A stretch of DNA of 64,000 bases from Myxococcota bacterium (lineage in GTDB: Bacteria; Myxococcota_A; UBA796; CAJQPC01). Below are positions 7,436-64,000 of this stretch, piece after piece; within the stretch, counting starts at the first letter, position 1, and each line of letters begins with the position of its first letter. The notes beneath the pieces are model-generated. The model had not been told where the DNA came from, searched no databases, and saw nothing but the letters and a program-made list of their open reading frames with translations. The position numbers and the translations under genes are program-made. The DNA lies in contig JAZAMN010000054.1 of the NCBI GenBank assembly GCA_036229005.1, forward strand, positions 17,983 through 81,982, in the 5' to 3' direction.

Positions 7436-10400
7436 ATGCTGAACCGGCCGCTGCTGTCCCGTGCCCTGCTCATCGCCCTCTTCTCCGCCCCGATGGTGGT
7501 GGCCGTCACCGACTCGGCCCCCGCGGCGGCCCAGGGTGCCTCGCTGTTCGCCAACAGCAGCGGGATGGTTCACCTGCTCTCCCCAAGCGCGGTTGTTGGG
7601 GACGGCAGCTCCACCGCCACCCTCTTCCTCCTCGCCCTGAACCCGGATGGCAGCCCCATGACCGGCCTCAAGGGGCGGATCGGCGCGGACCAGGGCGGCA
7701 CCTCCGATCTCAAGGATCAGGGCAACGGGCTGTACAGCTTCGACTACACGCCCCCGATGGTGAGCGCCGCGACCAAGGTCAGCTTCTCGCTCAAGGCCAA
7801 GACCGCTGCCAAGGTCAGCATGGACAAGGACTTCGCCCTCTGGGTGAACCCGCCCCTGCCCGCGCAGCTCACTGTCAGCTCCAGCCCCACCGAGCTGGTG
7901 CTGGGTCAGGACCAGGGCGCCGCTCTGAACATCCGCCTGACCGGCCCCAATGGCGAGACCGCGGCGGACGGCGGCCAGCTCCTGGTCAACACCGAGTACG
8001 GCAGCGTGGAGTCCCTGACCTACCTGGGCGGCGGCGCCTGGACCGCCCGCTACGTGCCCAAGGCGGTCAACTACCCGCACCTGGACGTGGTGACCTTCGC
8101 CGACGCCCGCGACCCCTCCAAGGTGTACGGCACCCACGTGGTCTCGATGGTGGGCAAGACCAACTTCCCCATCTCTGATGCCACCCCCAACAGCACCGTG
8201 ATGCTGCGCATCGGGGAGCGCGACTTTGGCCCCTACCAGGCCGACACCCAGGGCAAGGTCAGCATCCCCGTGACCGTGCCCCCGGGCATCCCCACGGCCA
8301 CCCGCATCACCATAGTCAATGGCGAGCAGCGGCAGGAGCCCTTTGACCTCCAGCTCCCCAAGACCCGCCGCCTGGCGCTCTTCCCCATGGCCACGGTCCC
8401 CGGCGATGGCGAGACCAGCGTCCCTGTGCGGATCGCGGTCCGCACCCCCGAGGGCAAGGCTGACGGCGGCGCAAAGGTCAGCCTCTCCTCCACCTCCGGC
8501 AAGGTCTCCCAGCCGGTGCACGAGGGGAACGGCATCTACCGCGCCGACTTCACCCCCTCCCGCAGCGCCGCGGGGGAGACGGTCACCCTGAGCGCATCGG
8601 TCGCCGGCGAGGCCAGCAAGTCCGACCTCCAGGTCCAGGTCGCGCCCGCGCTGCCCAACCAGCTCAAGCTCACCGCCGAGCCCACCCAGCTCAGCGCTGG
8701 CGCCACCGGCTTCAAGGTCTACGCCAAGCTCACCGACCCGGCGGGCATCGGCATCGAGGGCGCCGCTCCCGCGTTCGTGGTGGCCGGCGCCAAGGCCAGC
8801 GGGGCCCCCCGCGACCTCAAGTCGGGCGACTACCAGTCCAGCTTCAGCACCACGGGGGCCGACTCTGTGCTGGTGACTGCCCTGGCCCTCGGCGCGCCCT
8901 CGGGCAACCCCATGTCTCGCGTGGTGGTGCTGCCCTCCTCCGAGCGCGTCACCAACGATGGCCGCAGCACCGTGGTCGTCTCCGTGCTGAGCGTCGACCA
9001 GTTCGGCTACCCCGTTCCCGACCAGCCGGTCACCCTGCGGGTCAACGCCGGCGACGGCCGCCTCCCCTCCGAGGTGCGCACCGACGCCCGCGGCCTGGCC
9101 ACCGTGACCTACGCCGCTGGCAGGACCGCCGGCCCCGTGGACATCGAGGCCAAGTCCGGCGGCCTCTACGGCTCCGCCACCCTGCTCCAGGTCCCCGCCA
9201 GCGTGGACATCGACCTGCCTGCCAGTGGCAGCGCCAGCGTCGTTTCCCAGGACGAGCGCCTGGCCCGCCTGGTCCAGACCGTGCTCATCCCGCGGGAGGG
9301 CGCCTCTGGCGTCGCCCTGGCGACCATGGATGACACCTCCGGCACCGTCGGCCCCGTCACCACCCTCGAGGTGGCCGCCAGCCCCGCCGAGGTCGCACCG
9401 GGCGGCAGCGTGACCATCAACATCACCGCCCGCGACCAGCAGGGCCGCGCGGTCGCCGACGAGGACCTCAAGGTGCTCGCTACCGGCGGCGTGATGTCCG
9501 CAGTCCAGAAGCGCGGCGGCGGCAGCTACAGCGCCACCCTGACGGTCAACGCGGACGCCAGCGGCGACGCGATGGTCGTGGTCACCAGCGCGAACGGCAA
9601 GGTCAGCCAGGCCCTGCCGGTCCCCATCGCCGCCAACCTCTGGGGCAGCGCCCCCGAGGCCGCCGTCGTGGAGAACACCACCCCTGAAGGCCCCGCTGGC
9701 GCGGCACCGGAGACCACCCCGGTCGCCCCCCTGCCCCCTCCCCCGGAGCCCCCCACCGCCCCCAAGGCCGAGGGTGAGTTCCCCAACGGGCGCGTGCGGG
9801 TAGCCGGCGTGTTCGGGTCCTACGACTACCGCCAGGCCCCCACCGAGAACCCCAGCGCGCTGTGGAACGACGCGGTCAACGTCGCCACCGGCATCGCGGG
9901 CTTCGAGGTCGACGGCTACGGCTACCTGCCCAAGCTCCCCTACCTGGGCGCCGAGGCGCAGTTCCGCATGGGCCTCTACAGCCTGGTCTGGCCGGGCACG
10001 AGCGAGGAGCAGGCCATCGGTGACCAGGTCCCCCGCCTGAACGTCAGCGTCCTGGGCCGCCTCCCCTTCCAGGTGGGCGACAACCAGCTCCACGTGGGCG
10101 CGCGCGCCGGGTACCTCTACGGTGACTTCATCACCTACCAGCAGGGAGCCACCGAGACCCAGCTCAACTACGACTCCGTGGGCCTGCCTGGCGGCTGGAC
10201 CTTGGGCGGTGAGCTCGGCGCTCAGTTCAGCCAGCGCGCGCACATGCGGGCCGTCTACACAGCGGGCTTCAACCAGGTGAACCTCTACGACCACAGCGTC
10301 ATGGTGGACCTGGGCGTGCGCCCCTCCCTGGACCTGCCTCTGTCCCTGGTCGGCAGCTTCCAGTACACCGCCCGCGACATCGAGGTCGTGACTGCCGGCG

Positions 10401-10477
10401 ACGGCAGCAGCACCCTGGTCGGCACCCTCGAAGACACCCAGCTTCTGGGCACCGTGGGCGTCGCCTACGAGTTCTGA
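7436..10477 (+). CDS. Surface protein with invasin-like Ig (Big_1-type) repeats and C-terminal outer-membrane beta-barrel
   Basis: Signal peptide. Repeated motifs DQGNGLYSFDY, YLGGGAWTARY, HEGNGIYRADF, DLKSGDYQSSF and KRGGGSYSATL, plus DQFGYPVPDQPV. Pro-rich linker, then alternating beta-strands ending VGVAYEF. Confidence 0.75.
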   Translation: MLNRPLLSRALLIALFSAPMVVAVTDSAPAAAQGASLFANSSGMVHLLSPSAVVGDGSSTATLFLLALNPDGSPMTGLKGRIGADQGGTSDLKDQGNGLYSFDYTPPMVSAATKVSFSLKAKTAAKVSMDKDFALWVNPPLPAQLTVSSSPTELVLGQDQGAALNIRLTGPNGETAADGGQLLVNTEYGSVESLTYLGGGAWTARYVPKAVNYPHLDVVTFADARDPSKVYGTHVVSMVGKTNFPISDATPNSTVMLRIGERDFGPYQADTQGKVSIPVTVPPGIPTATRITIVNGEQRQEPFDLQLPKTRRLALFPMATVPGDGETSVPVRIAVRTPEGKADGGAKVSLSSTSGKVSQPVHEGNGIYRADFTPSRSAAGETVTLSASVAGEASKSDLQVQVAPALPNQLKLTAEPTQLSAGATGFKVYAKLTDPAGIGIEGAAPAFVVAGAKASGAPRDLKSGDYQSSFSTTGADSVLVTALALGAPSGNPMSRVVVLPSSERVTNDGRSTVVVSVLSVDQFGYPVPDQPVTLRVNAGDGRLPSEVRTDARGLATVTYAAGRTAGPVDIEAKSGGLYGSATLLQVPASVDIDLPASGSASVVSQDERLARLVQTVLIPREGASGVALATMDDTSGTVGPVTTLEVAASPAEVAPGGSVTINITARDQQGRAVADEDLKVLATGGVMSAVQKRGGGSYSATLTVNADASGDAMVVVTSANGKVSQALPVPIAANLWGSAPEAAVVENTTPEGPAGAAPETTPVAPLPPPPEPPTAPKAEGEFPNGRVRVAGVFGSYDYRQAPTENPSALWNDAVNVATGIAGFEVDGYGYLPKLPYLGAEAQFRMGLYSLVWPGTSEEQAIGDQVPRLNVSVLGRLPFQVGDNQLHVGARAGYLYGDFITYQQGATETQLNYDSVGLPGGWTLGGELGAQFSQRAHMRAVYTAGFNQVNLYDHSVMVDLGVRPSLDLPLSLVGSFQYTARDIEVVTAGDGSSTLVGTLEDTQLLGTVGVAYEF

Positions 10478-11140
10478 GCCGGGGCTCAGGTGGGGCGCGA
10501 GCCCCACTCCCACCCTCACCACCGCCGGGGTTTCGGCGCGCAGACCTGCGCCCGAAACCCGGGAGTTCGGGCGGCCGAGGCGGTCGGTTCAAGCCAAAGC
10601 AGCGGCGACGCCGCGCCGACGCGAAGGCCCCTGCGCCTCGACCCCGTCCGACCGAACTCCCGGCTGGGGGTGGCCCCGGCTCCGCCGGGGCTCAGGGGGG
10701 TCGCGCACGCCCCCACCCCACTCCCCCCTCACCACCGCCGAGGTCTCGGTGCGCAAACCTGCGCCCGAGACCCGGGAGTTCGGGCGGCCGAGGCGGTCGG
10801 TTCAAGCCAAAGAAGCGGCAAAGCCGCGCCGACGCGCAGGACCGAACGCCTCGCACCCGTCCGACCGAACTCCCCCGCGGGGGGTGGCCCCCGCTCCGCC
10901 GGGGCTCAGGGGGGTCGCGAGACCCCCATAGAAAACCGGGGTTGCTGCGCGCAAACCTGCGCGCGCAGCCGGCTCGGAGGGGGGCCGGGAGCTTCCCGAC
11001 AAAGCCAAAGCGGGAGTCGGCCCTGGCCGGCTCCCCGACGCGCCGAGGGAAGCTTCCGCTCATGTCCCCCCGGAGAGCCCGCGGGGGGTGGGCCCAGCTT
11101 GACTGGGCCTCAGGGGGGTCGCGAGACCCCCATACAAAAA
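10478..11140 (+). repeat. Cluster of three structured ~200 bp repeats (A1 ~10517-10715, A2 ~10730-10930, B1 ~10944-11135)
   Basis: Tandem near-identical units (CACCACCGCCG at 10517 and 10730) with multiple inverted repeats. Homologous copies at 35631, 42549, 43325 and 63873. Confidence 0.9.
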
Positions 11141-11141
11141 A

Positions 11142-11870
11142 CTACAACCGCTCGATCACGACCTTCTTGAGCACCACATCCGTCACGGGCTTGTCCCCGG
11201 GGCCGCGGTCCACGTGGGTGATCTCCTTCACCTTGCCCACCTCTTCGCACTGGCCGAAGATGGTGTGCCGACCGGTCAGGTGCGGCGTGGGCGCCTCGGT
11301 GATGAAGAACTGCGAGCCGTTGGTGTTGGGCCCCGCGTTGGCCATCGCCAGCACGCCGGGCTTGTCGAAGGCGCGGTCGCTGTCCAGCTCGTCCTCGAAC
11401 TTGTAGCCGGGACCGCCGGTGCCCGTGCCCAGGGGGTCGCCGCCCTGGATCATGAAGCCGGGGATGACCCGGTGGAAGGTGGTGCCGTCGTAGAGCGGCC
11501 CGTCCACCGTCTGGCCGGTGCGGGGGTGGGTCCAGGTCCGGGAGCCCTCGGCGAGCTGCACAAAGTTCAACACCGTCTTGGGCGCATCCTCCGGGAAGAG
11601 CTCGCAGTGGATGTCACCCAGGGAGGTCTTGAAGGTCGCTTTCAGCGGCTCACCGGGCTCCACACCGAGCTGGGACAGGGTGGCGGCCAGAGCCTGCGCT
11701 TCGACCTCCTCCGTCAGCGAGGCCACCCGGCTCTTGAGCGCCTCGTTCTCCCGCCGGGTGCGCTCGAGCTCCTCCTGGGTGGACTTGAGCTCGGACCGGG
11801 CGGAGTCGAGCTCCTCGAGCTGGGCGGCGCTGGGTCCGCAGGCGACAAGGGCCGCGAGCAGCATCAACAT
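11142..11870 (-). CDS. Cyclophilin-type peptidyl-prolyl isomerase, lipoprotein with N-terminal coiled coil
   Basis: FHRVIPGFMIQGGDP, LAMANAGPNTNGSQFFIT and HTIFG. Signal MLMLLAALVAC with AGGAGG RBS. Confidence 0.95.
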   Translation of the reverse strand: MLMLLAALVACGPSAAQLEELDSARSELKSTQEELERTRRENEALKSRVASLTEEVEAQALAATLSQLGVEPGEPLKATFKTSLGDIHCELFPEDAPKTVLNFVQLAEGSRTWTHPRTGQTVDGPLYDGTTFHRVIPGFMIQGGDPLGTGTGGPGYKFEDELDSDRAFDKPGVLAMANAGPNTNGSQFFITEAPTPHLTGRHTIFGQCEEVGKVKEITHVDRGPGDKPVTDVVLKKVVIERL

Positions 11871-11978
11871 GGGACCTCCTGGGTTTCTGCTGCCGAACCT
11901 CACCCGATCCCCACCTCAGGTCAAGGGGACAGGGGTGCCCGGCCCGCTCCTTGTTAAGGATCTCCCTGGAGGTCCTTC

Positions 11979-35630: not shown

Positions 35631-35682
35631 GGGGGGTGATCCCGGCTCCGCCGGGGTTCAGGGGGGTCGCGAGACCCCCATA
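35631..35682 (+). repeat. Terminal module of the structured repeat family
   Basis: GGGGGGTGATCCCGGCTCCGCCGGGGTTCAGGGGGGTCGCGAGACCCCCATA matches the unit ends at ~10880-10930 and ~43657-43706. Confidence 0.9.
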
Positions 35683-36545
35683 GAGAAACCTCTCCAGCGC
35701 TCCGCCTGCTCCACCAGCCACTCCCGCACCGCCCGCACCCTGGGCACCTGGCGCAGGCTGCGGTGGTAGACCATCAGCAGGGCGTAGGTGGGCAGCTCCG
35801 GGGCCTTGAGGGGGACGCGCACCAGGCCCTGGGCGACGGCGGGGCTGATGATGCCGGCGGCGGTCCCGGAGTGGATGGCGGCGTGCAGCAGGCTCCAGCT
35901 CGACACGCGGGTCAGGTGGCGCGGGTGCGCGTGGGCCATCAGCCAGCGGGTCTCGTCATAGCGCAGCTCGGGGTCGTGCAGGGCCACCCAGGGCAGCTCA
36001 TCGACGCGGGTGCGGGCCAGCAAGTCGGGGTGGACGTAGGCGGCCAGGGGGATGCGCAGCAGCTCGCGGACCACCAGGTCGGGGGCCGTGGGCGGGATGA
36101 AGCGCAGAGCCAGATCGGCCTCGCCGCGGACGAGATCCAGGACCTCGGTGCCGGCGAGCAGGTCCAGCTCCAGCTCGGGGTGGCGCGCGCGGAGCTCCGG
36201 GAGCCCCGGCAGAAGCAGGTGGGGCCCCAGTCCGTCCACCAGGGCCAGCCGCACCCGGCCACGGGGGGCGGACTCGTAGCCTGAGGCCACCCGCTGGATC
36301 TCCCGCATCTGCTCGCCGATGGCGCGGGCGTGGGGGGCCAGCTCCAGGGCCAGGGCAGTGGGGGCGAGGCCCTCGGGTCGGCGGTCGAAGAGGATGCCCT
36401 GGACCACCTCTTCCAGCCTCTGCAGCCGACGGGAAGCGGTGGACTGACTGACCCCGAGCGAGGACGCAGCGCGCGAGAGCGAGCCGGTGTCCAGAGCGGC
36501 GAGCAGGAGGGCCAGGTCCTCCCAGGCGGCGTCGGTGAAGTGCAT
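35658..36545 (-). CDS. LysR family regulator
   Basis: WEDL...GSLSRAASSLGVSQSTASRRL, GEADLALR and YHRSLRQVPRVRAV. Divergent from an oxidoreductase. Confidence 0.92.
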   Translation of the reverse strand: MHFTDAAWEDLALLLAALDTGSLSRAASSLGVSQSTASRRLQRLEEVVQGILFDRRPEGLAPTALALELAPHARAIGEQMREIQRVASGYESAPRGRVRLALVDGLGPHLLLPGLPELRARHPELELDLLAGTEVLDLVRGEADLALRFIPPTAPDLVVRELLRIPLAAYVHPDLLARTRVDELPWVALHDPELRYDETRWLMAHAHPRHLTRVSSWSLLHAAIHSGTAAGIISPAVAQGLVRVPLKAPELPTYALLMVYHRSLRQVPRVRAVREWLVEQAERWRGFSMGVSRPP

Positions 36546-41256: not shown

Positions 41257-41297
41257 TTATTGAAATCTCTGTTGACTTGCAATTTCATTTCCAATAG
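41257..41297. promoter_or_regulatory. Fur-box-like AT-rich divergent promoter
   Basis: TTATTGAAAT...TTGCAATTTCATTTCCAATA between the TonB receptor and the lipoprotein. Imperfect inverted repeat in otherwise GC-rich DNA. Confidence 0.55.
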
Positions 41298-41325
41298 TTG
41301 GGCCGGCCAACCCCAGGAGCACCAG

Positions 41326-42540
41326 ATGCCTCTCCTCCTTCCCCTGCTCTTTGCCTGCACCGCCCCCAGCGACACCGCTGAGGACACCCAGACCACCGAC
41401 GACACCGGCAGCCCCTCGGCCTACGACGGCTACGTGGTCGCTGACATCGTGATCACCGACAGCGGGCGCACGACCTACTTCCAGGCGGTGCCCGAGCTCA
41501 GCGGGGACATCGACAACAGCGCGGCCGTCGAGCTGGCCGGGAACGCCGAGGTCGCCGTGGTGGGCGGCTACGTGCTGGGCAGCGACACCGAGGCGCCGGT
41601 CTGGTACCGCTACACCGTCGACGCCGAGGGTCAGATCGAGGCCGCCGGCGAGATCAGCTTCGCCGCCTACGGCTGGGCGAACATCGACTACTACAACGTG
41701 TTCGTCAGCGAGGACCTGGCCCTGTCCCTGAACACCAGCCTGGCCGAGGGCATCTGGTGGAGCCCCAGCGACCTGAGCATCCTGGGCACCATCGACATGA
41801 GCCAGGTCTTGTCCGAGGGCTACTCCACCGAGCACTTTGCCCCCACCCTGGCCGACGGCCGCATCTACCTGCCCGTGCGGCACGCGGACTGGACCAACTA
41901 CGTCATCAAGCACGAGACCCGCGTGCTGGTGATCGACACCGAGAGCCAGTCCATCGTCGCGGACCTGGCGGACGACCGCTGCCCCAGCTCCGGCAGCATC
42001 ATGCTCTCCCCGGACGGCATGGCCTACACCATGAGCGACGGCCGCAACTACTCCGCGCAGATGATCGCGCGGGCCACGGGCGCCGACGAGATCCCGGTCA
42101 ACTGCTTCCTGCGCTTTGACCCCGCGGACCTGGAAGCCGGCTTCGACAGCGACTGGAGCGTCGACGTGCCCGAGCTGACGGGCGGCCGCGAGGTGGTGAC
42201 CAACCTGGCCTCGGGCGACCTGAGCTCCGGCGTGGGCTTCGCGCAGGTCATGTACGAGGAGGAGATCGACGGCGAGCCCGTGGACTTTGGCTTCTGGAGC
42301 CAGCCCTTCTCCAAGGTGTGGCGCTTCGACCTGAGCAGCGGCACCCCCAGCGCGGAGCTGGTGGAGGGCGCGCCCTTCACCGGCATCGGCTTCGGCGGCG
42401 TGGCCGTGGAGGGCGACCTGCTCATGGGCCAGTCCACCGACGGCGCCAGCTCGGACGTGCTGCGCTTTGACCCCGACACGAACACCGCCACCGAGATGTT
42501 CACCATCGAGGGCTACTTCTACCAGGCCTTCAAGCTCTGA
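41326..42540 (+). CDS. MxcI/DUF4374-like beta-propeller lipoprotein (iron uptake)
   Basis: AGGAG RBS and MPLLLPLLFAC. GRTTY, DDRCP and GFDSDW..D..ELTGGR. Divergent from the MxcH-like receptor. Confidence 0.7.
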   Translation: MPLLLPLLFACTAPSDTAEDTQTTDDTGSPSAYDGYVVADIVITDSGRTTYFQAVPELSGDIDNSAAVELAGNAEVAVVGGYVLGSDTEAPVWYRYTVDAEGQIEAAGEISFAAYGWANIDYYNVFVSEDLALSLNTSLAEGIWWSPSDLSILGTIDMSQVLSEGYSTEHFAPTLADGRIYLPVRHADWTNYVIKHETRVLVIDTESQSIVADLADDRCPSSGSIMLSPDGMAYTMSDGRNYSAQMIARATGADEIPVNCFLRFDPADLEAGFDSDWSVDVPELTGGREVVTNLASGDLSSGVGFAQVMYEEEIDGEPVDFGFWSQPFSKVWRFDLSSGTPSAELVEGAPFTGIGFGGVAVEGDLLMGQSTDGASSDVLRFDPDTNTATEMFTIEGYFYQAFKL

Positions 42541-42548
42541 GGGTCGCC

Positions 42549-42767
42549 GGGGGGTCGCAAGACCCCCATACAAAAACCTGGGCTGCTGCGCGCACACCTG
42601 CGCGCGCGGCCGGCTCGGAGGGGGGCCGGGAGCTGCCCGACAAAGCCAAAGCGGGAGTCGGCCTTGGCCGGCTTCCCGACGCGCCGAGGGCTGCTTCCGC
42701 TCCTGTCCCCCCGGAGAGCCCGCGGAGGGTGACCCCGGCTCCGCCGGGGTTCAGGGGGGCGCGAGAC
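42549..42767 (+). repeat. Structured repeat, B-type unit (B2)
   Basis: Near-identical to ~10910-11125. Confidence 0.9.
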
Positions 42768-42822
42768 AGGCCCAGCGGGCGGGAATTGAGGCCGGGGCCG
42801 CGGTGCGCCAGAGGCTCCCCTC
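42768..42822 (+). repeat. 55-bp imperfect direct repeat of 37219-37273 (3' end of the oxidoreductase gene)
   Basis: Ungapped hand alignment gives 50/55 identity. Confidence 0.85.
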
Positions 42823-42835
42823 AGCTGTTCCCGCT

Positions 42836-43005
42836 CTGGAGGGCCTGCCGGGGGTGGGGCCCAAGCGGCGCAAGGCGCTGCTCACGCATTTGGGAACCTC
42901 AAGCGGGTGAAGGCGGTCAGCGCGGAGGAGATCGCGGAGGTCCCGGGGATAGGGACGGGGTCGGCGCAGAAGATCTGGGCGGCGCTGCAGGAGCCAGAGG
43001 GGTAA
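42836..43005 (+). pseudogene. uvrC: Remnant of the UvrC C-terminal (HhH)2 domain, frameshifted
   Basis: LEGLPGVGPKRRKALLTH, a 1-nt frameshift at ~42890, then GNLKRVKAVSAEEIAEVPGIGTGSAQKIWAAL-QEPEG* (TAA 43003-43005). No upstream uvrC body. Confidence 0.8.
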
Positions 43006-43021
43006 GGGGCGGCGCCCCGGT

Positions 43022-43287
43022 GGCTACGGGGGTTCAATGAGCGCAGGGGGGCGGCTAGTGGCTTTCAATGAGCGCCTCGCTGAGGCTACGGGTGCTCGGT
43101 GAGCGCTTCTCCCTGAATCTTGGGCCCCAGGAGCGGAATCTGGGCCGTTTTGAACCCCAATTGGGGCCGATCGGGGGCTCTGGGCGCCAGATCGGTGGGC
43201 GGATCGCACACCGGTGGGGCGTAGCCTCGAAGGACCGCTCATTCAGAGGACGTAGCCGCCGGGTTCGCTCATTCGGCCGGCGTAGCC
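43022..43287. repeat. Inverted 3+3 box element, copy 1
   Basis: 22-bp boxes start at 43022, 43053 and 43084 (forward) and at 43205, 43236 and 43266 (reverse). Confidence 0.9.
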
Positions 43288-43324
43288 GCCAGTCCCAGGG
43301 CCTCTCCATCCTCCCGAGCCAGCC

Positions 43325-43711
43325 AGGCGCGCACACGTGCGCGCGCGGCCGGGAGTTCGGGCGGCCGAGGCGTTCGGCTCAAGCCAAAGAAGCGGCGAAG
43401 CCGCGCCGACGCGCAGGGCCGAATGCCTCGCACCCGTCCGACCGAACTCCCCGCGGGGGGTGATCCCGGTCTGCCGGGGTTCAGGGGCGCGAGCCCACAT
43501 CCCCTCTCACCACAGGCGAGGCTTCGGTGCGCAAACCTGCGCCCGAAACCCGGGAGTTCGGGCGGCCGAGGCGTTCGGCTCAAGCCAAAGAAGCGGCGCA
43601 GCCGCGCCGACGCGCAGGGCCGAATGCCTCGCACCCGTCCGACCGAACTCCCCGCGGGGGGTGACCCCGGCCCCGCCGGGGTTCAGGGGGGTCGCGAGAC
43701 CCCCATAAAAA
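43325..43711 (+). repeat. Two tandem structured repeats (A3 chimeric, A4)
   Basis: Homologous to 10517-10930. Confidence 0.9.
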
Positions 43712-44641
43712 CTACTGCGCTTCCACCCACTCCTGCCAGGCGCGCTGCCGGGTGTCTTCGAGCGCGTGCTTGGCCAGGGTGCGGGCCACGGTCTGGGTGC
43801 CGGTGTGGGCGGTGTAGGCGGTGCTCGCGTCCAGGGCGGCGGCGATGTAGTCCCCGGCGCCGTCGGCCACGTTGACGATGCCCTTGACCTGCTGCAGCAC
43901 GCCGGCCTGGGTGAGCTGCTTCTCTTCGACGAAGCGCCCCACCCACTCGCCGGTGGTGTCCAGGGTCTTGAGGATGAAGTCCTTCTTCTGCCCCACGTTG
44001 TCGCCGGGCAGGCGCTCGCCGAGCTTGGAGAACACGGGGTTGCTCAGCAGCTTGTCGCTGGCCAGGTCACTGACGTTGTTCAGGATGATGCGGATGAAGT
44101 CCGGCCCCAGGGGGAGCAGCCCGTCGAAGCTGACCCAGGCGGCCAGGCGCATGGTGTCGTGGGTGCCGTAGTCCTGGATGGCGCCGGCGAACTTGGCCAA
44201 ACCCTCGGGACCGGCAGTGGGGCGCCCGTTGAGCAGGCCGAAGGCGACCAGCTCGGCGACCAGCTTGAGGGCGGCGTCGATGGACTGGGTGGTCGCGGGC
44301 TTGGGGGTCATCTGCTTGAGGAAGCCCCCGCCGAAGTTGCCCAGCAGATCCCCGACCTTGGAGGCGACGGCGGCCCCAGCGGCGACCTGATCGACGGTGT
44401 CCACCAGGGTGTAGACCTGCAGGGCCTGCCCGTAGCGCGGGTCCGCGAGCTGCATGGCCTGGGCGCGCTTGGCGATGGCCATCACCACCTTGGGCTTGTC
44501 CACCTGGGCCACGTCCATGACCAACTTGGGGAAGTTGTTGTGGTTGTGCCACTCGCCCGGGACGACCTTGTCCAGGGTGCGCAAGGCGGTGACGGTGAGG
44601 CCGCTGTCGGGCAGCTTGTGCAGAGAAGTGATGACGTCCAT
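43712..44641 (-). CDS. Conserved hypothetical helical protein
   Basis: GGGAG RBS and strong codon bias. Motifs LDKVVPGEW, LKLVAELVAF, FDGLLPLGPDF and HTGTQTVAR. Confidence 0.85.
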   Translation of the reverse strand: MDVITSLHKLPDSGLTVTALRTLDKVVPGEWHNHNNFPKLVMDVAQVDKPKVVMAIAKRAQAMQLADPRYGQALQVYTLVDTVDQVAAGAAVASKVGDLLGNFGGGFLKQMTPKPATTQSIDAALKLVAELVAFGLLNGRPTAGPEGLAKFAGAIQDYGTHDTMRLAAWVSFDGLLPLGPDFIRIILNNVSDLASDKLLSNPVFSKLGERLPGDNVGQKKDFILKTLDTTGEWVGRFVEEKQLTQAGVLQQVKGIVNVADGAGDYIAAALDASTAYTAHTGTQTVARTLAKHALEDTRQRAWQEWVEAQ

Positions 44642-54982: not shown

Positions 54983-55059
54983 TGGTCGGGGAGGCCGGAT
55001 TCGAACCGGCGGCCCTCTGCTCCCAAAGCAGATGCGCTACCAGACTGCGCCACTCCCCG
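54983..55059 (-). tRNA. tRNA-Pro (TGG)
   Basis: Reverse complement CGGGGAGTGGCGCAGTCTGGTAGCGCATCTGCTTTGGGAGCAGAGGGCCGCCGGTTCGAATCCGGCCTCCCCGACCA folds as a cloverleaf with anticodon TGG and encoded CCA. Confidence 0.97.
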
Positions 55060-56298: not shown

Positions 56299-56331
56299 GT
56301 CCTGTTGGGCCCTGGCGCGGCCTCTTGACCC

Positions 56332-56587
56332 GGCTACGCCCCCCGAATGAACGCGGGGGGCTGGCTACGCCCGCTGAATGAGCGCATCGCTGAGGCTACG
56401 CCCCACCAGTGAGCGCTCCGGCCACCGTTTGGGGCCGAAAGCGGCGAAAACGGCCCCCAAATGGCCCCCTGAAGGCCCAAAAGCCCCAGATCGGTCCTCA
56501 AAACGCTCACCGAGTGGCCGTAGCCTCAGACGATCGCTCACTCAGGGCCGGTAGCCACCCCCGGCCGCTCACTCGCACCCGGTAGCC
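56332..56587. repeat. Inverted 3+3 box element, copy 2
   Basis: 22-bp boxes start at 56332, 56363 and 56394 (forward) and at 56504, 56535 and 56566 (reverse). A degenerate fourth box starts at 56597. Confidence 0.9.
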
Positions 56588-56626
56588 ACCCTCGGCTGCT
56601 CACACGCCCCCGCTGGCCCCTTCCGC

Positions 56627-63127: not shown

Positions 63128-63808
63128 CTACACCGGCAGCTCCAGAGCCTCCCCCAGCCAGCGCATCCACGGCATGGCCTCCTCGAAGCGCTCGCAGACC
63201 CACTGCTCCAAATCCGGCGTTCCGAGCTTCTCTTCTGGGAGGGCCAACGACAGCGCCCAGTCCTTGTAGCGCAGGTCTTCGATCAGGGCGTGCTCGGGGT
63301 CGAAGCCCTTCGGCGCGCGCTTGAGCGACTCCCCCATGCGCTCCCAGCCGGCGTCCAGCCCGGCCGCCTTGGCTGCCAGGAAGTCATCGGGGCGCTCCAC
63401 GACCGCCTGTCGCGCCTTGAGCAGCGCGCTCCGTTCCGGGTGCCACACCCCCGCCCCCAGCATGCAGTTGCCGGGCTCCAGGCCGATGTAGAAGCCTGGC
63501 GCGTGCACGTCCCGGCTCGCCTGCGCGTGTCGGAACTGCATCCCGGTGTGTGTCTTGTAGGGCGACTTGTCCTTGGAGAAGCGCGTGTCCCTGTAGATGC
63601 GGAACAAGCTTCCGCCGTTGCCCTTGTCGCTGGCCACGAAGTGCGGGCTCAGATCCATCGGGGGCCCCTGGATCGCCCGGATGAACCCCAGCGCCGGCTC
63701 CTTCACCTGCGCGTCATAGCGTCCCTTGTTCGCCTTGAACCAGTCCCGTTCGTTGTTCTCGGCCAGATCGGCCATGAAGTCGAGCAGCTCGGGGGGAAGC
63801 GTGGCCAT
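63128..63808 (-). CDS. DUF2461 (TIGR02453) family protein
   Basis: NNERDWF, FRIYRDTRFSKDKSPYKT and LKRAPKGF. Confidence 0.92.
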   Translation of the reverse strand: MATLPPELLDFMADLAENNERDWFKANKGRYDAQVKEPALGFIRAIQGPPMDLSPHFVASDKGNGGSLFRIYRDTRFSKDKSPYKTHTGMQFRHAQASRDVHAPGFYIGLEPGNCMLGAGVWHPERSALLKARQAVVERPDDFLAAKAAGLDAGWERMGESLKRAPKGFDPEHALIEDLRYKDWALSLALPEEKLGTPDLEQWVCERFEEAMPWMRWLGEALELPV

Positions 63809-63872
63809 CGTGTCCTCACCGGCGCGGGTTGTTGCCTGTCGGATGCTACTGCAGCGCGCCCGATGCGGACTG

Positions 63873-64000
63873 TCCCCGGCCCCGCCGGGGCTCAGGGGGG
63901 GCGCGCACACAGCCCACCACTCCCACCCTCACCACCGCCGAGGTCTCGGTGCGCAATCCTGCGCCCGAGACCCGGGAGTTCGGGCGGCCGAGGCGCTGGG
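63873..64000 (+). repeat. Structured repeat, A-type, truncated by the window end
   Basis: Matches ~10674-10800. Confidence 0.88.

Follow-up and report, generated by a model that had tools for sequence, protein, structure and literature searches.

A stretch of 64,000 nucleotides from a Myxococcota bacterium (the window; G000:C54:17983-81982, that is, part of contig C54 of genome G000, which comprises 6.4 Mb in 74 contigs at 70% G+C) carries five loci at which hairpin-rich units of approximately 190 nt, or parts of them, are found behind, before and within the ends of genes. The question raised by these units is what kind of element they represent, and whether it is their fold that selection maintains. 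In the present analysis the family proved to be a real, genus-restricted and strongly structured mosaic repeat. We assign a probability of roughly one half to the view that it is a non-autonomous element akin to repetitive extragenic palindromes (REPs), bacterial interspersed mosaic elements (BIMEs) and Neisseria intergenic mosaic elements (NIMEs), with CGTC-tagged hairpins, which spreads as a folded single strand and is co-transcribed at gene ends. It is best seen as a new family, outside the described REP groups, of a kind of element that is already known, rather than as a new class.

Unit architecture and fold conservation

Sequence reading bore out the content of the window as given in the initial annotation, namely six full units, one unit cut by the window end and isolated terminal modules at five loci, all on the + strand (Table 1). 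The core pattern AAGCCAAAG-N12-34-CCGACGCG matched six times in the window, always on the + strand, and not at all in 100 shuffles, and a tandem-repeat finder reported a 213-bp period at 10536-10937. For three units a shorter span than that of Table 1 was also assigned, namely 10739-10930 for A2, 10937-11134 for B1 and 43517-43707 for A3. The genome-wide BLASTN and Infernal searches which that annotation had proposed were performed and recovered the family throughout G000: BLAST and motif scans located approximately 18 intervals on six contigs (C54, C57, C4, C2, the end of C74 and the start of C62), the core pattern gave 17 matches of which 15 are family cores, covariance models detected 16-17 copies of the P2/P3 domain described below, and 14 family P5 hairpins were counted. 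A unit is interrupted by the contig end at three contig ends of G000, and the assembled contigs of four DNA runs are broken up inside the array over 9800-11800, where their summed depth does not equal copy number. One X2 contig bridges 10505 to 10936, skipping 430 bases, and may represent a strain without units A1 and A2, although with 37 letters on its shorter side at a likeness threshold of 90 it is too weak to count.

The unit comprises, in order, a hairpin H1 (inner stem GCGCA-AACC-TGCGC, outer stem variable), a long interrupted stem P2 which encloses AAGCCAAAG-P3-CCGACGCG, a linker (CGCGGGGGGTG), a hairpin P4, the trinucleotide TCA, a hairpin P5 (GGGGGTC-GCGA-GACCCCC) and an A-rich tail (ATAcAAAAA). 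The 5' part of the core motif first reported (AAGCCAAAG) stands, while its 3' part is here corrected to CCGACGCG; similarly, the single P4 hairpin type originally described is present, but P4 occurs as two types among the copies, the second having the stem GGCCCAG-CTTGA-CTGGGCC. An array opens with a partial P4/P5 and closes with P5 and a tail, so that P5 brackets every unit. As in BIME and NIME mosaics, where one unvarying small palindrome recurs between a few other motifs, the arrays take the form P5-[H1-P2/P3-linker-P4-P5]n with modules swapped among copies. The unit at 43323 (placed at 43325 by the initial annotation) does have a 5' hairpin of B type in front of a body of A type; a second such hybrid lies on contig C4 (C4:162478), and an A-type short P3 is found within a B-type P2 on C57 and C2. 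Truncated copies, cut on the 5' or on the 3' side, and solo P4-P5 modules also occur.

Seven B-type P2/P3 domains, aligned with MAFFT and given a hand-drawn structure (the alignment from which the first covariance model was built), have 95.4% of cells paired, and in 8 of 28 pairs both partners have changed; their covariation score was reached in none of 500 shuffles, and sliding of the partners lowers pairing to 44-64%. The corresponding values for 22 domains of G000 and two congeners, G001 and G003, are 93.0% of cells and 23 of 28 pairs (40-53% paired in slid controls, and no shuffle of 500 reaching any of five measures), this alignment being fitted to the covariance model and leaning towards its structure, which inflates the pairing. 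The MAFFT-based counts (the B-type set and a full-length set) are free of this bias but comprise fewer sequences, and since most copies come from one genome and are related by descent the counted cells are not independent events. In the full-length MAFFT alignment the outer stem of H1 and P4 covary as well; the inner stem of H1 and P5 are invariant and therefore yield no covariation signal. The compensatory pairs quoted in the initial annotation (GGTTTCGG/CCGAAACC versus GGTCTCGG/CCGAGACC, and TCGGTTC/GGACCGA versus TCGGCTC/GGGCCGA) are present, as is the GCGA/GCAA variation of the P5 loop, the module at 42549 being of the GCAA form.

Among cells which depart from Watson-Crick pairing, G.T outnumbers A.C by 31 to 7 (24 to 2 without two 5'-truncated rows); the strand asymmetry earlier noticed for G-T pairs therefore holds and designates the + strand as the folded strand. 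Stability also favours the + strand in 12 of 14 units, the other two being a tie and a reverse case, and the folding z-score of unit B1 is -4.15 on the + strand and -2.31 on the - strand. Selection for folding of one strand, as initially proposed, is thus upheld by covariation above shuffled and slid controls and by the strand-asymmetric wobble. Whether the folded form is RNA or single-stranded DNA is only a matter of leaning: in minimum free energy predictions, 328 of 414 consensus pairs are recovered with RNA parameters and 228 of 414 with DNA parameters, the DNA prediction for B1 losing P2, and these modelled energies lean towards RNA but are not decisive.

Distribution, insertion sites and position at gene ends

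A later covariance model, R2, was run over 151 genomes of the order. It matched all four genomes of the genus, with 17 matches in G000, five in G001 and one each in G003 and G002 (completeness is 94% for G000 and only 75% for G002), and gave no match in the 147 other genomes searched, which represent 66 other genera. Within this sample of the order, the family is directly shown to be restricted to one genus. BLAST of one unit against 40 relatives gave three weak matches only, of which that on contig C30 of G001 is a true diverged copy. A strict three-motif pattern had no match in public genome contigs or metagenome contigs, and a looser core pattern found true copies only in material of the same genus, namely two metagenome-assembled genomes and metagenome contigs of approximately 64% G+C. 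Matches at L019 (Aliiroseovarius), L020, L030 and L033 were set aside as chance or coding matches, R2 scoring them at no more than 19.9 bits or not listing them, where true copies score at least 44 bits; of 107 loci in viral contigs matching an 18-base pattern, the 80 scanned were likewise regarded as chance matches, the best reaching 22.7 bits.

Units in the relatives are simpler, consisting of a P2 with quite different stem sequences, (A/C)AAGCCAAAG, P3, CCGACGCG, a hairpin T and the tail ACAGAAAC. Hairpin T reads GTC-G-GCGCC-GRA-GGCGC-GAC (also written GTC(G)GCGCC-GRA-GGCGCGAC), and its stem has the compensatory variants ATGCC/GGCAT, GTGCC/GGCAC and GTCCC/GGGAC. Solo T hairpins, located directly behind stop codons, number eight in G001, 12 in G002, seven in G003 and none in G000, a reversed-pattern control giving none. 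In G002 these include a fourfold 45-bp tandem array of a short hairpin and T, in which a GAA loop directly closes the outer stem of P2 and the core has disappeared. Across the four species the stems have been replaced by compensatory changes while the junctions AAAGCCAAAG and CCGACGCG are nearly invariant, and P5, T and P3 are all capped by loops of the GNRA or GNA kind. A pseudoknot between CCGACG, which follows P3, and the CGTCGG of T was considered and rejected: both are invariant, and CGTCGG is better explained as T stem and tag.

Filled and empty sites among the congeners show insertion. The interval from the invasin-like gene to the cyclophilin gene holds a 663-bp array in G000; in G001, G002 and G003 it measures some 80-95 bp and includes a canonical bidirectional terminator (AAAA-GGGGCCTGTCC...GGACAGGCCCC-TTTTT) of a kind that G000 does not have there. 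The flanking stop codons differ too: on one side the congeners have TAA and G000 has TGA, and on the other they have TGA and G000 has TAG. A unit separates an acyl-CoA dehydrogenase-like gene from its neighbour in G001; in G000 the spacer there is only 6 bp long. At the DUF2461/tatD-like site, where the last module of the window lies upstream of the DUF2461 gene (63128-63910, - strand), G002 is empty, G001 is filled by one unit, and the corresponding intergenic region of G000 bears an array of its own; the G001 unit occupies what G002 uses as the opening codons of the tatD-like gene, and its T hairpin is followed by a new ATG. No copy was found at one orthologous site common to all four genomes. 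Two copies at non-orthologous sites, on contig C143 of G001 and contig C32 of G003, are 93.7% identical over 126 nt, and two syntenic regions of these genomes are 80-82% identical. The non-autonomous mobility suggested in the initial annotation is supported by the filled and empty sites and by the finding of no transposase beside any of the loci.

The neighbouring genes are unrelated, being of housekeeping type or without a family (among them an invasin-type Ig protein, cyclophilin, DUF2461, MurB, DHDPS, PriA, a cyclase, a hydrolase, DnaK and GroES/EL), and copies lie 3' of genes, 5' of genes and inside gene ends. Array 3' ends often coincide with a convergent stop codon: they are flush with one at 11142 and 43712 and separated from one by 4 nt at C57:106321 and by 6 nt at C57:106866, and at the priA gene (C57:70083) P5 itself is flush. 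In the relatives only 4-6 bp separate the convergent genes of the priA site. All three stops in such a flush position in G000 are TAG, which makes up 20% of stops there (823 of 4067 crude gene calls; a post-hoc count of few cases), and the cyclophilin and priA stops are TGA in the congeners. Read as their reverse complement, the tail, P5 and TCA supply the last ten codons, GFSMGVSRPP, and the TGA (35658-35660) of the LysR-type gene of the window (- strand), and the TGA of the gene at 7436-10477 belongs to a palindrome, CTGAGCC-GG-GGCTCAG. The effects on genes thus include replacement of an intrinsic terminator, a change of stop from TGA to TAG on two occasions, the last ten codons of a LysR-type gene and a new start for a tatD-like gene. 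The element is in sense orientation in all three informative co-directional gene pairs and its + strand has no T-runs, which would let transcription from neighbouring genes pass through it. The GC skew near the loci was too noisy for assignment to the leading or lagging strand.

Nature of the element

No described family was matched. Rfam 15 at gathering thresholds over the whole window returned only a tRNA and no match to the element, and at E<=10 over 10400-11250 the best score was 19.8 bits against a gathering score of 49.5; in the literature on REPs in Myxococcus and on miniature inverted-repeat transposable elements (MITEs) in myxobacteria no description of this family was found, which is not proof of absence. 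The initial annotation had made novelty depend on such comparisons, and while no Rfam match exists, resemblance to CGTC-tagged REPs and the Neisseria mosaics makes the novelty lower than claimed. REPs have been sorted into GTAG- and CGTC-tagged superfamilies, and CGTC REPs have been described as residing mostly behind ORFs (open reading frames) but at times inside genes, apparently without a dedicated transposase, with CGTC (or TGTC/CCTC) left unpaired at one end, a stem of 8-9 bp starting with A/T pairs, a loop of 4-5 nt and a tail CCA; dRS3 of Neisseria is a CGTC REP clustered in mosaic intergenic regions (NIME arrays) (Di Nocera et al. 2013, PMC3733652). In the family described here a CGTCGG tag precedes the T hairpin in G001, G002 and G003 and the reverse complement of P3, its complement CCGACG following P3 in 20 of 22 aligned domains, and the unit accordingly holds two tagged hairpins which face each other.

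CGTC REPs resemble the present family in being small GC-rich hairpins with an unpaired CGTC-type tag at one end, in lying behind ORFs, between convergent ORFs and sometimes within gene ends, in forming mosaics with other modules and in having no known dedicated transposase (PMC3733652). Unlike them, the present hairpins have all-G/C stems of 5-8 bp, loops of 3-4 nt and the tail ACAGAAA/ATACAAAA (tails compared: ACAGAAAC/ATACAAAA), are direct rather than head-to-head dimers, enclose a covarying multi-helix domain of 115 nt and number tens of copies rather than hundreds, and P5 of G000 has no CGTC tag (PMC3733652). Given the misfit of stem, loop and tail to the four CGTC families described there and the untagged P5, the family is like this group without being a member of a described family.

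Extragenic palindromes in mosaic arrays are shared with the REP/BIME and REPIN-RAYT systems (REPIN, REP doublet forming hairpin; RAYT, REP-associated tyrosine transposase), as are long hairpin-forming units, P2 resembling the REPIN hairpin, the relevance of one strand, and suggested roles in mRNA 3'-end stability and termination (PMC2817692, PMC3116915, PMC3337134). The conserved GTAG tag that marks the foot of REP palindromes, which are imperfect and 20-40 bp long, is lacking, since P5 is followed by ATAC, ATAG or ATAA (GTAT/CTAT on the other strand) and GTAG appears only where a TAG stop adjoins, G preceding 68% of all TAG stops in G000. REP/REPIN-RAYT systems typically reach approximately 100 or more copies per genome, and their RAYT gene commonly has REPs on either side. 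The family falls outside the RAYT-dependent REPs and REPINs on transposase, tag and copy number. Derivation from IS200/IS605 insertion sequences (palindrome-associated transposable elements, omega/reRNA), which would call for a TnpA (Y1) or TnpB gene, or both, with end hairpins to match, is not indicated either, PF01797 and PF07282 being absent from the four genomes. A MITE would have target-site duplications and terminal inverted repeats like those of an autonomous insertion sequence; here H1 bears no relation to P5 and hairpins in direct orientation form the ends, the copy on contig C23 of G001 alone having inverted T-like ends. BOX elements of Streptococcus pneumoniae and ERIC/Correia-type repeats are modular in an A-Bn-C style, with variable internal modules, stable predicted folds and co-transcription, and have terminal inverted repeats or defined box modules and approximately 100 or more copies; the present family has no sequence similarity to them, has direct hairpins at its ends and is confined to one genus.

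If the element is of the REP/BIME/NIME kind, new copies would arise through a structure-specific activity that has the conserved junction and the tagged hairpins (CGTCGG and stem) as its recognition sites. Arrays might then grow and shrink by unequal recombination between flanking terminal hairpins, which would leave solo hairpins behind as with solo long terminal repeats, and the fold would be selected in the transcript as a hairpin block that protects the 3' end or substitutes for a terminator. Several observations weigh against this reading. Approximately 17, 5, 1 and 1 copies per genome is far below typical REP families; BIME REPs alternate in orientation, unlike the direct terminal hairpins found here; no described REP is as elaborate as this multi-helix junction; and the pairing of the fitted 22-domain alignment is, as stated, inflated. 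At the three filled/empty sites the flanks have diverged too far for any target-site duplication to be read, and a canonical hairpin-then-U terminator was found at P5 on neither strand. The RAYT/TnpA/RT partner suggested in the initial annotation was searched for in the four genomes and not found: the Y1/RAYT model PF01797 had no match at E<=0.01, having matched 6 of 14 reference genomes as a control, TnpB (PF07282) was absent, and RVT_1 gave nothing above cut-off, with one sub-threshold fragment in G003. The Y2 model PF04986 matched only G002 and G003, the genomes with one copy each. The 23 flanking proteins examined are unrelated to transposition or belong to no family, the translations of four family-less neighbours having, by eye, no mutual likeness and no HUH motif. 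This directly shows that no known transposase family is linked to the copies.

The elaborate junction favours an alternative in which the P2/P3 domain of approximately 115 nt is a functional structured RNA, either a protein-binding cis element of untranslated regions or a small ribozyme, that has been duplicated with the REP-like hairpins as a 3' cap. Near-invariant junctions amid replaced stems in four species, tolerance of G.U and avoidance of A.C, the better fit of RNA parameters, the GNRA/GNA loops, the 93.7% identity of element copies against 80-82% in coding flanks and the sense orientation in all three co-directional contexts are as expected of such an RNA. We nevertheless hold this explanation to be unlikely, for Rfam scores stay far below gathering level even at E<=10, no promoter-like site was found in the array, copies lie in every kind of context with many truncated 5' or 3', no copy occupies one orthologous site in all four genomes, and the core can be deleted with functional-looking T arrays remaining. 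That the junction domain constitutes a new class of structured RNA (a protein-docking module of untranslated regions or a small ribozyme) riding on REP-like hairpins is somewhat more doubtful again; were it so, this would be the first bacterial interspersed repeat whose integrity depends on a multi-helix core of RNA type and not on ends bound by a transposase.

It is also conceivable, though improbable, that the useful product lies on the - strand and is a terminator for the gene converging on the tail, the reverse complement of P3 being a hairpin followed by CUUUGGCUUUGUCG. A consensus scan gave three terminator-like sites at P3 on the - strand (hairpin and CUUUGGCUUU) against 0.5 expected, the tail touches or nearly touches a convergent stop at six array ends in G000 and in two to three copies of the relatives, the cyclophilin-site array has taken the place of a canonical bidirectional terminator, and the opposite (sense) orientation is the only one taken by the element within operons and in 5' regions. 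The wobble asymmetry, however, makes the + strand and not the - strand the constrained fold; the short P3 stem has only 5 bp and its U-tract is broken by GGC; solo P4-P5 modules without P3 also sit on stop codons (C57:70083 and window 35658); and the priA site of the relatives offered no terminator to replace. Least probable, and in our estimation very doubtful, are neutral selfish palindromes whose paired changes stem from hairpin-templated mutation or gene conversion between arms or copies: the whole-stem swaps between subfamilies, shuffled modules and hybrids do point to frequent recombination among copies which mostly share one genome and a common descent, but templated correction predicts perfect pairs without strand preference, unlike the observed excess of G.T, independent compensatory stems are found in four species whose genomes are 80-85% identical, and the conservation of unpaired junction motifs is not explained by arm-to-arm copying.

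The family, read as a REP/BIME/NIME-like element, bears on a class of repeats that is among the least understood of common bacterial genome features and for whose CGTC branch no mobilising enzyme is known. With tens of copies the family is small and tractable, its filled and empty sites between sister species are clear, and an unusually rich covariation signal pins down the folding strand. Should the junction be a protein or ribozyme site it would link interspersed repeats to structured RNA biology; otherwise the family is a well-documented lineage-specific example of a known phenomenon.

Units in the window and accessory sequences

Table 1. Members of the repeat family in the window, with component positions and flanking features
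Feature	Position	Strand	Components and remarks
5' partial terminal module	10478..10508	+	P4 3' arm and degenerate P5; flush with TGA of upstream gene 7436-10477
Unit A1	10526..10716	+	H1, P2/P3 domain, linker, P4, degenerate P5; covariance model score 50.1 bits; followed by C-rich spacer 10717-10738
Unit A2	10739..10935	+	H1 10740-10772; P2 5' arm 10774-10803; AAGCCAAAG 10804-10812; P3 10813-10828
Unit A2, 3' part		+	CCGACGCG 10829-10836; P2 3' arm 10837-10874; linker 10876-10886; P4 10887-10905; P5 10909-10927; tail 10928-10935
Unit B1	10937..11141	+	H1 10938-10970; P2 5' arm 10971-11000; AAAGCCAAAG 11001-11010; long P3 11011-11037
Unit B1, 3' part		+	CCGACGCG 11035-11042; P2 3' arm 11043-11079; linker 11080-11090; second P4 type (P4b) 11091-11109; P5 11113-11131; tail 11132-11141
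Unit B1, tail end	11141	+	Flush with CTA (TAG stop) of convergent cyclophilin gene 11142-11903
Solo linker-P4-P5-tail module	35631..35689	+	Convergent LysR-type gene (- strand) ends within module
Solo P5 (GCAA loop) and tail	42549..42576	+	8 nt past stop of gene 41260-42540
Unit B2	42578..42768	+	P5 shortened on 3' side; covariance model score 107.8 bits
Hybrid unit	43323..43499	+	B-type H1, A-type body, degenerate P5; covariance model score 69.9 bits
Unit A3 and tail	43517..43711	+	Covariance model score 73 bits; flush with CTA (TAG stop) of convergent gene 43712-44641
P4, degenerate P5, C-rich spacer, H1, P2 start	63874..64000	+	Cut by end of contig C54

A C-rich, G-poor spacer (CCCACTCCCACCCTCACCACCGCC) replaces the A-rich tail after every degenerate P5 (GGGGGG(T)CGCGCAC...) at A-to-A junctions; besides that behind unit A1, such spacers are located at 10509-10525, 43500-43516 and 63909-63935, and they resemble a Rho-loading tract by composition only. 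Foldback arrays of 31-bp units, a separate family, adjoin three loci of the present one, with arms that read GGCTACG...GAATGAGCG on one side and CGCTCA...CGGTAGCC on the other; these arrays lie at 43000-43300 and 56310-56610 of the window, at L015 (C4:163.65-163.77 kb) and at C57:106.5-106.75 kb. On C4 a fourfold tandem array of GCGCAAGTGCCGCTGAACGCAACGACCCGGC takes the place of a unit's 3' half.

At G001:C4, approximately 144.17-144.22 kb (L049/L078), just past an inserted unit, the 17 nt before the next ATG are the inverted complement of the first codons and form a start-codon hairpin, GGTGACGAGGTCCTC-ATG-AGGACCTTCGTCACC, which the empty site of G000 does not have. The site that is filled on C23 of G001 is occupied in G000 (C71:75975-76055) by an unrelated 80-bp spacer, in which CTCAGGGGCGCGGGC, missed by BLAST, resembles a degenerate P5 in opposite orientation. 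The only Rfam match in the window is the tRNA gene at 54986-55059 (- strand). Between two element loci, at 42790-43005 (+ strand), lies an orphan, frameshifted helix-hairpin-helix fragment (Pfam HHH_2, 29.5 bits; a UvrC-like C-terminus). It shares 78-81% identity with parts of G001 and G002, as might be expected if the intergenic region had been scrambled.

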